The notes beneath the pieces are model-generated. The model saw only the letters and a program-made list of their open reading frames with translations. It searched no databases and was not told the DNA's origin. Both the position numbers and the translations under genes were made by a program. Positions 29,481-38,082 of a stretch of 64,000 nt of DNA are shown one piece after another. The DNA is from Clostridia bacterium. Its GTDB lineage: Bacteria > Bacillota > DSM-521 > Neomoorellales > Neomoorellaceae. The stretch covers positions 10,061 through 74,060 of the forward strand of contig JASUSV010000004.1 of assembly GCA_030445865.1 (NCBI GenBank). The letters run 5' to 3'. The stretch's first letter is position 1; the number at the start of each line of letters is the position of its first letter.

Positions 29481-29658
29481 GAGACCGAGCCCGGAGGCGG
29501 GGCTGAGGCATGGAGGCCCGAGGCCGGCCACTTAAGTCTGCGATGTCGAATTGGCCGGGAACCCCGCCGGAGGGTGAGGGGGGCCGTACGGCTTGTTGGC
29601 GAGCCCGAAAGACACCGGCGCCAGCGCCCCGGCATGGGGAATGTTTCGGAAGCATCAT
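29481..29658 (+). repeat. GC-rich intergenic repeat, copy A (right arm plus core; 5' arm absent)
   Basis: By eye it is roughly three-quarters identical to 37281..37463. Shared blocks are GAGACCGAGCCCGGAGGCGGGGC, GGCCGGCCACT, GTCGAATTGGCCG, CCGGAGGG, GGCGAGCCCG, CGCCAGCGCCCCGGCA and TTTCGGAAGCATCAT. Confidence 0.75.
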
Positions 29659-35984: not shown

Positions 35985-36566
35985 TTGGAAGCGCTCGCCG
36001 ATATTGTCCGCCAGGTGGCCCTGATCGTCTTGCTGGCTGCATTTTTAGAAATGCTGCTGCCGCGGCGGGGGCTGACGAACTACGTGAGGCTGGTGCTGGG
36101 GCTTTTCGTGCTGGTGGCCATCCTCAACCCTATAGTGGGTATGCTGGGCCGGGGCGGAGAAGTCGCCGTAGCCGCCTGGGACTTGCGCCCACCCCCTCCG
36201 CTTTCAGAAGCGGTAGCCAAAGGACGGGAGCTGGCCAGGCGCAATAATGAAAAAGCCTTGGAAACCTACCGGCATTCCTTGGCCAACCAGATTAAGGCCC
36301 TGGTAAGCCTCATTCCAGGCGCGGGCGAGGCAGAGGTGGAGGTAGAAATAGAACCGGGGGAGACGGGCAGGCTTAAGCTGGTAAGGGTCATCCTGTTCAG
36401 GCCGGCCGAAGTGCGAGGTGAAATTAAGATTCCGCCGGTAGAGCTTGTCCCCGGCGACGGCGAAAATAGGAAGGTGGAACCGGAACTGGTAGAGCGGATC
36501 AAAACCACGGTTTGCCGGTTTTATAACCTGTCGCCGGACCAGGTCCAGGTAATTGCAAGGGGGTGA
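35985..36566 (+). CDS. spoIIIAF: Stage III sporulation protein AF
   Basis: Two N-terminal TM helices and the operon position fit SpoIIIAF. Confidence 0.8.
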   Translation: MEALADIVRQVALIVLLAAFLEMLLPRRGLTNYVRLVLGLFVLVAILNPIVGMLGRGGEVAVAAWDLRPPPPLSEAVAKGRELARRNNEKALETYRHSLANQIKALVSLIPGAGEAEVEVEIEPGETGRLKLVRVILFRPAEVRGEIKIPPVELVPGDGENRKVEPELVERIKTTVCRFYNLSPDQVQVIARG

Positions 36567-37185
36567 AATCGTGTCGGATAAGACCCTTTTCCCTAAAGGC
36601 TGGCTGTGGCTTTGGCAGCGGCCCCGGCGGGCCCTCTGGTTGGGCGTGGCTGTCCTGCTCGGGCTGGCGTTATTGAGTACCGGCAATCTTATGAAAGACG
36701 GTTCCGGGGTTAAAACCGCGGGCCTGCGCCCTGCTCCGGTAACAGCAGGCGGGGGCTCCCAGCAAGAAGGTAAGGGCGAGCTGGGAACCGTTGCCCGGCA
36801 GCTGGAATCGCAGTTAAAGGGTATTTTAGAGCAGGTGCGGGGTGCCGGCAGGGTTGAAGTAAGCGTCACCCTGGCCGCCGGGCCTATGCGGGAATATGCC
36901 GTCAACACCAGGACCACCAGCCGCAGCGTGGAGGAAAAAGACCAGAACGGCGGCACGCGGCTAACCAAAGAGACCAACGCCGACGACCAGGTGGTCATGG
37001 CGCGGGCCGGCCAGATCGGGGGCGAGGGGCCGGTGGTGATTAAGGAATCCATGCCCAAGGTGCAGGGGGTGCTGGTGGTTGCCGACGGAGCCGAAGATCC
37101 GGTGGTGCGCGCCCAGATGGCCCAGGCCGTGCAGACCCTGCTGGGCATAGCCGCCCACCAGGTTCAGGTGTTGCCGCGGAGATGA
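36553..37185 (+). CDS. spoIIIAG: Stage III sporulation protein AG
   Basis: A single TM helix is followed by a ring-building-motif-like C-terminal domain (KVQGVLVVADGAEDP). The operon position also fits. Confidence 0.8.
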   Translation: MQGGEIVSDKTLFPKGWLWLWQRPRRALWLGVAVLLGLALLSTGNLMKDGSGVKTAGLRPAPVTAGGGSQQEGKGELGTVARQLESQLKGILEQVRGAGRVEVSVTLAAGPMREYAVNTRTTSRSVEEKDQNGGTRLTKETNADDQVVMARAGQIGGEGPVVIKESMPKVQGVLVVADGAEDPVVRAQMAQAVQTLLGIAAHQVQVLPRR

Positions 37186-37194
37186 GGTATTGTG

Positions 37195-37469
37195 TTACAA
37201 GGGCACTTCCGCAAGAAGTATGAAAATGCCGGGGGATACTGGCGTAAGGCGACTTTGGGCGAGCCCTGCGAGCCGTTGGCGAGACCGAGCCCGGAGGCGG
37301 GGCCGAGGACAGAGAAGGCCTACGGCCGGCCACTGAGACAAACAGGAGGTCGAATTGGCCGTGAACCCCACCGGAGGGCGAGGGGGAGCCATACGGCTCG
37401 CAGGCGAGCCCGTCTGGAGCCGTCGCCAGCGCCCCGGCACAGAGAATATTTCGGAAGCATCATTACAAG
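37195..37469 (+). repeat. GC-rich intergenic repeat, copy B (full dyad-symmetric form) between spoIIIAG and spoIIIAH
   Basis: The left arm 37202-37280 is complementary in blocks to the right arm 37388-37463: CTTCCG/CGGAAG, TGCCGGGG/CCCCGGCA, CTGGCG/CGCCAG, CCTGCGAGCCGT/ACGGCTCGCAGG. The core 37281-37463 is homologous to copy A. TTACAAG occurs at both edges (37195-37201 and 37463-37469). Confidence 0.75.
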
Positions 37470-37485
37470 CAATGGGGTGAAGAAG

Positions 37486-38082
37486 ATGATGGTTGTGACC
37501 AATAGGATGCGCGTTTTGCTGGCGCTGCTACTAACCTTCGGCGTGCTGGTCTACCTGGTACAGGGTGAAAGGCGGGCTCTCTCGCCGGCAGGAATAGAGC
37601 AGCCGGCAGAAGGGCCGGGCGACAAAATTAATACCGGCGCTAAAACGACCCCTGCTGCGGCTCCTATAGTTCAGGAGCCCAGGGCGGAAGATATCCTTAA
37701 GGGCGCTCAGAGCAAGGCGGGCAGTAAAAGCGGCTCGGCTTTTTTTGTGGAATATCGCCTGGAGCGCGACCGCAACCGCAGCAAACAAATCCAGTTATTA
37801 AAGGAAATTATTGATAGCCCCAGCGCGCCCGGCGAAGGCAAGCAGGAGGCCCAGAAGAGGCTGGTGGATTTAACCCAGCAGATGGACCTGGAGCTTCAAT
37901 TGGAAAAATTAATTGTCGCTAAAGGCTACCAGGAGGCCGCCGTTTTTATCCAGCCGCATGCGGTCAACGTCCTGGTCATGGCAGCCAATTTTGGCCCAGG
38001 GGATGCGAACAAAATCGGCGACCTCGTATGCCGCGCCACCGGTCGCCCGCGGGAGCAGGTAAGCATTATACCTTTTTCCTAA
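37486..38082 (+). CDS. spoIIIAH: Stage III sporulation protein AH
   Basis: The ATG at 37486 gives MMVVTNRMRVLLALLLTFGVLVYLV (TM helix), followed by a YscJ/FliF-like C-terminal domain. The ORF-track extension back to 37192 runs through the repeat. Confidence 0.82.
   Translation: MMVVTNRMRVLLALLLTFGVLVYLVQGERRALSPAGIEQPAEGPGDKINTGAKTTPAAAPIVQEPRAEDILKGAQSKAGSKSGSAFFVEYRLERDRNRSKQIQLLKEIIDSPSAPGEGKQEAQKRLVDLTQQMDLELQLEKLIVAKGYQEAAVFIQPHAVNVLVMAANFGPGDANKIGDLVCRATGRPREQVSIIPFS

Follow-up and report, generated by a model that had tools for sequence, protein, structure and literature searches.

The window examined for the current report is a stretch of 64,000 nt (C69:10061-74060) from the 2.08-Mb draft genome of a member of the Moorellaceae (G000, 90 contigs), and its subject is a 260-nt repeat that lies between two sporulation genes of the spoIIIA operon, spoIIIAG and spoIIIAH. 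The repeat is a miniature inverted-repeat transposable element (MITE) inserted into a 32-nt spoIIIAG-spoIIIAH spacer in this Moorellaceae lineage. We consider it highly probable, on the evidence taken as a whole, that this MITE belongs to a family with an IS6-like parent, that the family homes to a position at a fixed distance from the Shine-Dalgarno sequences of genes and that its members carry at their tips a structure resembling the TwoAYGGAY RNA motif. In itself, a MITE with an IS6-like parent is nothing out of the ordinary; the sequence comparisons described below support two unusual traits for it, namely the oriented insertion at a fixed offset and the TwoAYGGAY-like cargo.

The hairpin between spoIIIAG and spoIIIAH

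The features of the locus are collected in Table 1. The product of the upstream gene matches the SpoIIIAG family (E = 1.1e-42, 145.6 bits, slightly below the cut-off of 147.7) and SpoIIIAF (PF09581) is encoded directly 5' of it; together with the PF12685 match of the downstream gene, this bears out the gene names proposed in an earlier note that was written from the letters of the window. The same note had described an imperfect hairpin of ~260 nt between the two genes and had called for its comparison with shuffled controls. The hairpin is present: the + strand of 37195-37469 folds into a single long imperfect hairpin with a minimum free energy of -135.5 kcal/mol, far more stable than dinucleotide shuffles of the same sequence (mean -101.9 +/- 4.5, z = -7.47, 0 of 200 as stable), and the minus strand is less stable (-129.3 kcal/mol, z = -5.9).

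Table 1. Features of the spoIIIAG-spoIIIAH locus and of the second copy of the repeat, in coordinates of the window
Feature	Position	Strand	Basis or remark
spoIIIAG (upstream gene)	36553..37185	+	Open reading frame (ORF); stop TGA 37183-37185; NCBIfam TIGR02830 spore_III_AG
Left copy of target-site duplication, 8 bp, GTTACAAG	37194..37201		Register set by 28 aligned copies and their flanks
MITE, 260 nt, type-A member of the family	37202..37461	+ (sense strand of spoIIIAH)	Profile match hmm 3-255; fold
Left terminal inverted repeat GGCACTTCCGCAAG	37202..37215	+	Alignment; counterpart of the GGTSCTTCCGAA end of the IS6-like element
Apical core, TwoAYGGAY-like three-way junction	37286..37382	+	Covariance model R1: 69.9 bits, E = 3e-14
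Right terminal inverted repeat ATTTCGGAAGCATC, the 'GATGC' end facing the Shine-Dalgarno run	37448..37461	+	Copy alignment
Right copy of target-site duplication, 8 bp, ATTACAAG	37462..37469		Copy alignment
Shine-Dalgarno run of spoIIIAH, GGGGTG	37474..37479	+	Positions 13-18 past the element end
spoIIIAH	37486..38082	+	ATG 24 nt past the element end; Pfam PF12685, E = 7.7e-33
Copy A, 5'-truncated MITE without left arm	29483..29656	+	hmm 77-255; 46 nt 5' of aroQ

The two copies of the duplication flanking the element are identical at 7 of 8 bp, and removal of the MITE together with one of them leaves the spacer of 32 nt. The left terminal repeat GGCACTTCCGCAAG carries three substitutions relative to the family consensus given below, two of which lie in its tip (GGCAC, where the consensus has GGTGC), and the right terminal repeat ATTTCGGAAGCATC agrees at every position with that end of the IS6-like element which precedes the transposase gene. 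The only coding frames that cross the MITE are an upstream extension of spoIIIAH and antisense ORFs. The extension belongs to an open frame of 296 codons (37192-38082, + strand) that starts at a GTG just 5' of the MITE, stays in frame along the entire element and continues into spoIIIAH; the true start of spoIIIAH is the ATG at 37486 behind GGGGTG, and an automatic gene caller could choose the 37192 frame instead, which would mis-annotate the start of the gene.

The repeat family and a candidate parent element

A profile search of the genome returned 91 matches to the repeat, at least 28 of them full-length with both arms, which together account for 15 kb or 0.72% of the genome and lead us to an estimate of ~70 copies. 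Copy A, which precedes aroQ in the same window, matches only the right two thirds of the profile and lacks the left arm, as had been noticed before; its core (29486-29578) scores 86.4 bits with covariance model R1. The ends of the element and the register of the duplication were set by aligning the 28 full copies with their flanks. The consensus ends are GGTGCTTCCGAAAG...GTTTCGGAAGCATC, the reverse complement of the right end being GATGCTTCCGAAAC, and 12 of their 14 positions are identical. The earlier note had regarded the termini as non-complementary and the flanking repeat TTACAAG as perhaps coincidental; that reservation falls away, since GGTGCTTCCGAAAG and GTTTCGGAAGCATC, the consensus ends, form 12 of the 14 possible pairs and the drifted left end of the spoIIIA copy explains the mismatch. 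TTACAAG does occur at both edges as claimed, and what must be corrected is the length of 7 bp, for the actual duplication measures 8 bp.

Direct repeats of 8 bp whose sequence differs from copy to copy (for example AACTAAAA, ACATAAAA, AGGTGGAA and AAATTTTT) lie directly outside the ends, and they are perfect or match at 7 of 8 positions in about two thirds of the full copies of this genome, which marks the repeat at the spoIIIA locus as a true target-site duplication. They also flank copies in three other genomes as well as four mini-MITEs of 96-97 nt (C60:35019-35114, C60:104513-104609, C26:55332-55428 and C6:42691-42787, all outside the window), which share an internal deletion junction, have lost the whole apex and are bounded by perfect duplications. 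Empty sites are likewise available: in 18 relatives, none of which belongs to the genus under study, the spacer between spoIIIAG and spoIIIAH measures 15-90 nt and is free of the element, and a GGGG(A/T)G ribosome-binding site precedes spoIIIAH in these element-free relatives too. Copy number, duplications, element-free spacers, fold and an insertion sequence (IS) with matching ends thus all sustain the suggestion that the hairpin is a MITE-like insertion.

The family is found in the Moorellaceae and their neighbours (Neomoorella, Moorella mulderi, Desulfovirgula and several metagenome-assembled genomes). The median identity among its copies is 86.5% in this genome, as against 94% in G023, a genome that retains the IS, and the best match of the spoIIIA copy to any other copy is 91%. 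The best identity between a MITE of this genome and one of G023, which represents another family of the same order, is 91.5%; since this exceeds the median within our genome, it hints at horizontal spread of the MITE between lineages. A search of the literature for a MITE of Moorella found nothing relevant.

The repeat has also left its mark on the assembly. A total of 33 of the 180 contig ends terminate within a copy, which makes the MITE a main cause of the fragmentation; the breaks cluster at profile positions ~68-72 and 97-137. Such elements may account for one third of the breaks between contigs in the draft genomes of related organisms.

Pairs of the terminal motif 0.4-6 kb apart do not occur in this genome, nor does any match to the transposase described here. 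The sole trace of a parent IS is a remnant at C89:13504-~13900, in which a GATGC end that abuts the ribosome-binding site of a gene is followed by a zinc-ribbon frame of 65 codons and then by decayed sequence. Homologues of this remnant led to a 1376-bp element in G023 (contig C168), bounded by GGTCCTTCCGAATC and GATGCTTCCGAAAC and containing zinc-ribbon and DDE_Tnp_IS240 frames (PF13610, 35 bits, cut-off 27). Copies of the IS are present in G023, in G027 and on three metagenome contigs; the metagenome copies are 1405-1474 bp long, one of them encodes an intact transposase of 342 aa (P0006) with two N-terminal CxxC...CxxC zinc ribbons, and one (L176) is flanked by the perfect 8-bp duplication GGAGGTGC. 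The autonomous element with matching inverted repeats for which the earlier note had recommended a search exists, accordingly, in other genomes and in metagenomes, and the genome under study has only the remnant. The transposase is rare in the order; a search of the class covered the same 28 genomes and brought nothing further, and across the phylum the IS was found almost nowhere.

The long clostridial IS6 elements with zinc fingers and 8-bp duplications, among them ISCpe7, ISCbo1, ISTps1 and ISNth1, constitute clade VII of Harmer and Hall (2019, PMC6807381) and clade h of Varani et al. (2021, PMC7986276); the two reviews list a few IS6-derived MITEs and state that experimental data are absent for this clade. 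The partner IS resembles these elements in its length of 1.38-1.47 kb, in a transposase of ~342 aa with CxxC ribbons ahead of the DDE_Tnp_IS240 domain, in its 8-bp duplications and short inverted ends starting with G, and in the frequency of copies that lack a duplication. It differs from ISCpe7, whose family of IS6-like transposases includes its nearest annotated relatives by tblastn, in an identity of ~31%, in a score below the NCBIfam cut-off for IS6 and in its end sequences. The interior of the MITE, which contains a structured module, has no relationship to the IS.

The proposed kinship between MITE and IS is built on the 14-nt ends, the 8-bp duplication and a common target geometry. Three considerations speak against it or against the affiliation with IS6: this genome has no intact transposase; the IS transposase scores 37.8 bits with the NCBIfam model transpos_IS6, whose cut-off is 125, so that its DDE domain is only distantly IS6-like; and the duplication is missing in three of the four full IS copies for which both flanks are available. 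The last observation provides an indirect hint of a replicative cointegrate mechanism. The MITE family of this genome is probably immobile, a fossil, since nothing but a remnant of the IS survives and the copies are old.

The apical core and its possible consequences for spoIIIAH

The 92-nt apex of the hairpin folds as a three-way junction. A basal stem P1 (GGCGGGG/CCCCGCC) leads to P2, a 4-bp hairpin with the family consensus loop AUGGAG or AGGAU, and to P3-P4, in which CCGGCCA/UGGCCGG is followed by a conserved UGAG/CGAAU internal loop and then by P4 with the loop A(A)GGAU. These helices were defined by hand and then tested, RNAalifold on full-length alignments having given poor structures in the mosaic apex. 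In a MAFFT alignment (A1) comprising 30 cores, drawn from 8 genomes or more, 93% of the cells pair and 12 of the 25 pairs change on both sides; none of 500 shuffles reaches these values, and slid registers are far off as well. A K-turn was also considered for the internal loop of P3/P4 and was rejected, since this loop is symmetric, contains tandem G-A pairs and lacks a 3-nt bulge.

Of the 401 genomes by which the phylum was sampled (278 genera), 53 (39 genera) have matches to the covariance model of the core, mostly in multiple copies; the core and its inner arms recur in other lineages within different outer shells. Three distant core matches score 46.6 (L209), 42.7 (L199) and 39.4 bits (L197) with RF01731, the TwoAYGGAY motif described by Weinberg et al. 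(2010, PMC2864571), for which the threshold is 43. We treat the apex, at the level of sequence and predicted structure, as a divergent relative of TwoAYGGAY and not as a scored member of RF01731. It has in common with that family a basal stem bearing two successive hairpins with GGA loops (A[U]GGAU/G), its occurrence in multiple copies and the elongated basal stem seen in Bacillota; it differs in that the copies of the Moorellaceae are unmatched and in that the second hairpin has the conserved UGAG/CGAAU internal loop. A bioRxiv preprint of September 2026 in which the motif is extended (10.64898/2026.09.22.753630) notes the multi-copy nature of TwoAYGGAY and leaves a mobile-element-like expansion open; unlike this literature, in which the vehicle is not specified, the module is encountered here as cargo of a MITE with ends, duplications and a candidate transposase.

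Some of the evidence weakens the kinship with TwoAYGGAY or the case for a conserved structure. The window copy has no match to RF01731 at E < 10, and the other Moorellaceae copies behave likewise. In the spoIIIA copy, about four pairs of the core are broken; its P2 has the variant loop ACAGAGAAGG...UAC, which contains neither an AYGGAY motif nor GGA, and its P4 keeps the GGA (AAACAGGAG). When 31 diverse core matches were compared, both partners had changed in 23 of 25 pairs; this alignment was fitted to the model and therefore favours the structure. No Rfam family covers the element in the window, neither at gathering thresholds nor at E <= 10, and a match to c-di-GMP-II-GAG (E = 0.015) was dismissed as weak and limited to part of the left arm.

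The two strands of the element are not equivalent in their folding. The + strand is the more stable one in 47 of 50 copies, by a mean of 18.4 kcal/mol, and this bias of the predicted folds fits a constraint at the level of RNA in the sense of the downstream gene. The asymmetry may instead stem from the founder copy or from strand-biased mutation, and the count of G-U against A-C sites, 60 versus 48, is a weak excess obtained from a profile-forced alignment that is noisy with module indels; such column-wise counts were superseded by the folding of both strands copy by copy.

Since the mini-MITEs have transposed to the same type of site without a core, the tip appears to have been kept for a role other than mobility, for which CsrA binding and RNA stabilisation are candidates. 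This brings us to the most viable of the alternative explanations, to which we assign a modest chance of being correct and which is compatible with a MITE origin: that the copies are mainly domesticated RNA modules, in which the tip binds a dimeric, GGA-reading protein of the CsrA type or the rod stabilises the mRNA, and that the spoIIIAH copy tunes the expression of its gene. In its favour, compensatory changes have preserved the core structure in 39 genera and within different transposon shells, stable folding is specific to the strand that is co-oriented with the gene that follows, transposition does not require the core and the genome has a csrA homologue (C60:16937-17113, outside the window; 53% identity over 60 residues to CsrA of B. 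subtilis). The loops resemble the hairpin ACARGGAUGU, which is said to have emerged from the selection of CsrA ligands by systematic evolution of ligands by exponential enrichment that Dubey and colleagues reportedly carried out in 2005. The proposal that AYGGAY loops are binding sites of Csr/Rsm proteins is cited in preprint 10.64898/2026.09.22.753630. This explanation is, for its part, a prediction from sequence and structure, and the spoIIIA copy, with four broken core pairs and the P2 motif lost, looks as neutral decay would predict. Moreover, the element is missing from this spacer in all other genera examined and is therefore not a part of conserved spoIIIA control, and its loops are separated from the ribosome-binding site by ~80 bp of helix, which makes it unlikely that one CsrA dimer could bridge both.

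For spoIIIAH itself, the GGGGTG and the ATG are intact and start 12 nt past the base of the hairpin, and a scan of 36900-37700 on both strands for promoters and terminators found no pattern of either kind and no U-tract. With an intact ribosome-binding site and start codon and with neither a terminator nor a promoter pattern, a large effect of the MITE on spoIIIAH is not expected from the sequence; a modest effect on the processing or stability of the mRNA is possible. The copy looks like an old, decaying insertion, given its mutated termini, its broken core pairs and its best match of 91%. An outward promoter in the right end was rejected, as it would lie too close to the ribosome-binding site and no match was obtained, and so was the left-arm mini-ORF ATGAAAATGCCGGGGATGCTGGCGTAA as a leader peptide, for want of a usable ribosome-binding site.

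The outer shells that surround the same core elsewhere have features of their own. A sister shell, 'type B' (L038, L041, L066, L073, L074, L081, L082 and L090; Neomoorella/Moorella), ends in TTTTCGGAGGAGC, and this terminus doubles as the ribosome-binding site for whichever gene follows (purQ, hisH-like, leuC-like and others); at the left end of the shell are a second copy of the TTTTCGGAGGAGC motif and an ATG, from which a conserved frame of ~18 codons (M..NHREHEN.GLAFV*) extends into the left arm. In L074 (Moorella mulderi), one copy has a nested insert of ~70 nt in its right arm, CCCAGCACTCAACTCG...CGAGTTGAGTGCTGGG, which is itself a hairpin. A third shell (L067, L180 and L181; Desulfovirgula sp., G007 and G402) has the inverted ends CTGAGTTATCCCCACTTTT and lies 10-21 nt 5' of a -35 box, TTGAC(A/G), with a TATAAT-like box behind it (3 of 3 cases read); it may use a different landing signal.

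Elsewhere in the window, the sole Rfam family that reaches its threshold is the c-di-GMP-I riboswitch aptamer RF01051 (15601-15687, + strand; 84 bits, E = 4e-15), in a region of pilus/type II secretion-like genes.

The landing site and its significance

Beyond the GATGC end of the MITE, the sequence elements follow each other in a fixed order: the 8-nt duplication, ~3 mostly A-rich bases, a G-run and a start codon. At each of positions 12-17 past the end, G is found in 34-42 of 58 right ends; a G-rich run occupies these positions in 45 of them, and a start codon that opens a real frame lies 22-28 nt past the end in most of the 58 copies. When the presence of at least 4 G in positions 12-17 was combined with that of a start codon at 21-31 opening at least 60 codons, 35 of the 58 right ends passed the test; the pass rate was 0.78% among 200,000 random positions, and none of 42 left ends, read outward, passed. 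The gap to the upstream stop codon, by comparison, ranges from -1 to >300 nt, which argues that the element is anchored to a downstream signal and not squeezed into short spacers. The same offset is seen in 24 non-redundant copies from three other genera, in the four core-less mini-MITEs and in 6 of 6 IS copies with a readable flank, where the end upstream of the transposase is followed by 8 nt and 1-5 nt, the ribosome-binding site and the start codon of the gene that faces outward.

We suspect that this register reflects the recognition of the target by the transposition complex. A less likely source of the fixed position is purifying selection, in which case the MITE would be real and would land at random in A/T-rich 8-mers, and only those insertions would persist that spare the ribosome-binding site, genes and promoters and lie in a non-terminating orientation. 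The duplicated 8-mers are indeed A/T-rich, A-rich sequence is typical of the region just 5' of ribosome-binding sites, many copies are located in short operon spacers with few tolerable positions, and all of the visible copies are old and are survivors, so that selection could in principle have sharpened the position; in addition, a gene start cannot be recognised at the expected distance from about one fifth of the right ends. Against selection, the register is too sharp, the G peak at 12-17 being present in ~70% of the copies, even where upstream spacers measure 100 to >300 nt, and a G-run is kept at this offset in most copies for which no downstream gene can be recognised. No gene start faces any of the 42 left ends, and the 1.4-kb IS, the 97-nt core-less minis and the 260-nt MITEs share one geometry despite effects on RNA and polarity that must differ. 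It is this register, common to elements of very different length and RNA consequence, that leads us to favour target recognition, by a moderate margin. A target preference for the IS6 family is not described in PMC6807381 or PMC7986276, nor did a full-text search of the literature find one, and nothing relevant emerged from a search for MITEs or ISs with ribosome-binding sites as their targets.

Two further explanations dispense with the transposon or with the family altogether. The copies might be structured RNA genes or REP-like palindromes that were spread by recombination or by an HUH/RAYT enzyme, with coincidental flanking repeats, as might be imagined for long multi-copy intergenic hairpins in a genome without a transposase; this is most improbable in view of the 8-bp direct repeats of differing sequence around most copies, which denote a staggered DDE cut and are not made by HUH enzymes, and of the identity of the MITE ends with those of a DDE insertion sequence. 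REP/BIME elements are short GTAG-type palindromes that are mobilised by RAYT and have no target duplication, and the 8-bp duplications and DDE-type ends seen here do not fit them. Least credible of all is a built-in attenuator, terminator or processing site of the spoIIIA operon, which a very stable stem between two co-transcribed genes might call to mind but which is at odds with the lack of a U-tract or terminator pattern on either strand, with the same spacer being element-free in 18 relatives and with ~70 copies before unrelated genes such as rpmF and aroQ.

Returning to the MITE with an IS6-like parent, the mechanism that we propose would be as follows. The 342-aa zinc-ribbon DDE transposase of the 1.4-kb IS6-like element, supplied in trans, would move the MITE and would cut the target with a stagger of 8 bp, as the duplications indicate. 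The GATGC end would be joined 8 nt plus ~3 nt 5' of the G-rich Shine-Dalgarno run, leaving the element in the sense orientation with its end ~24 nt before the start codon. The transposition complex would recognise the Shine-Dalgarno-like motif itself as DNA, and plausible readers of the motif would be the zinc ribbons or the end-binding domain, the latter in view of the CTTCC of the end and the CCTCC of the target strand (in common, C(T/C)TCC). Once inserted, the MITE would be co-transcribed with spoIIIAG and spoIIIAH as a stable rod, whose base, 12 nt short of the ribosome-binding site, should leave the initiation of translation possible and whose tip would be the conserved module related to TwoAYGGAY, with its GGA-containing hairpin loops.

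A broader proposition can be put together from these steps, which we advance as a speculation that is more apt to fail than to hold in its entirety. It supposes that the transposase reads Shine-Dalgarno DNA as a beacon; that the MITEs have installed GGA-loop modules, each with two sites for CsrA or a similar dimeric regulator, directly 5' of the ribosome-binding sites of dozens of genes, thereby coupling them (spoIIIAH included) to a global regulator or titrating that regulator; and that TwoAYGGAY RNAs in general are passengers of various transposon families, to the benefit of the host or of the element.

Small intergenic elements with inverted repeats, which are co-transcribed with genes and form long RNA hairpins that can be processed or can affect the stability of the mRNA, are familiar from Neisseria (Correia elements) and from the enterobacteria (ERIC/IRU); these elements measure ~100-160 bp, duplicate TA and occur in both orientations, with no known fixed offset from the ribosome-binding site. 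The present MITE is like them a small inverted-repeat hairpin between genes, but it has an 8-bp duplication, is longer and is found in one orientation and at a fixed offset. Landing signals that are recurrent, harmless, intergenic and orientation-specific are likewise known, for IS1397 and ISKpn1 in REP loops and for Tn7 downstream of glmS. Unlike these, the signal here would be the Shine-Dalgarno region, of which there are thousands of sites per genome, and no accessory targeting protein is evident. The fixed, oriented Shine-Dalgarno offset also separates the partner IS and its MITEs from the long IS6 clade as reviewed.

For TwoAYGGAY, an orphan RNA family known since 2010, the MITE provides a concrete vehicle and makes the question of its spread testable. 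A DDE transposon that inserts at a fixed, oriented offset from the Shine-Dalgarno sequence would, if true, represent a new kind of target choice and would suggest the existence of a natural protein that recognises the DNA of ribosome-binding sites. Such homing would also explain how a 2-Mb genome could take up ~70 copies, some of them inside essential operons, and its host survive.

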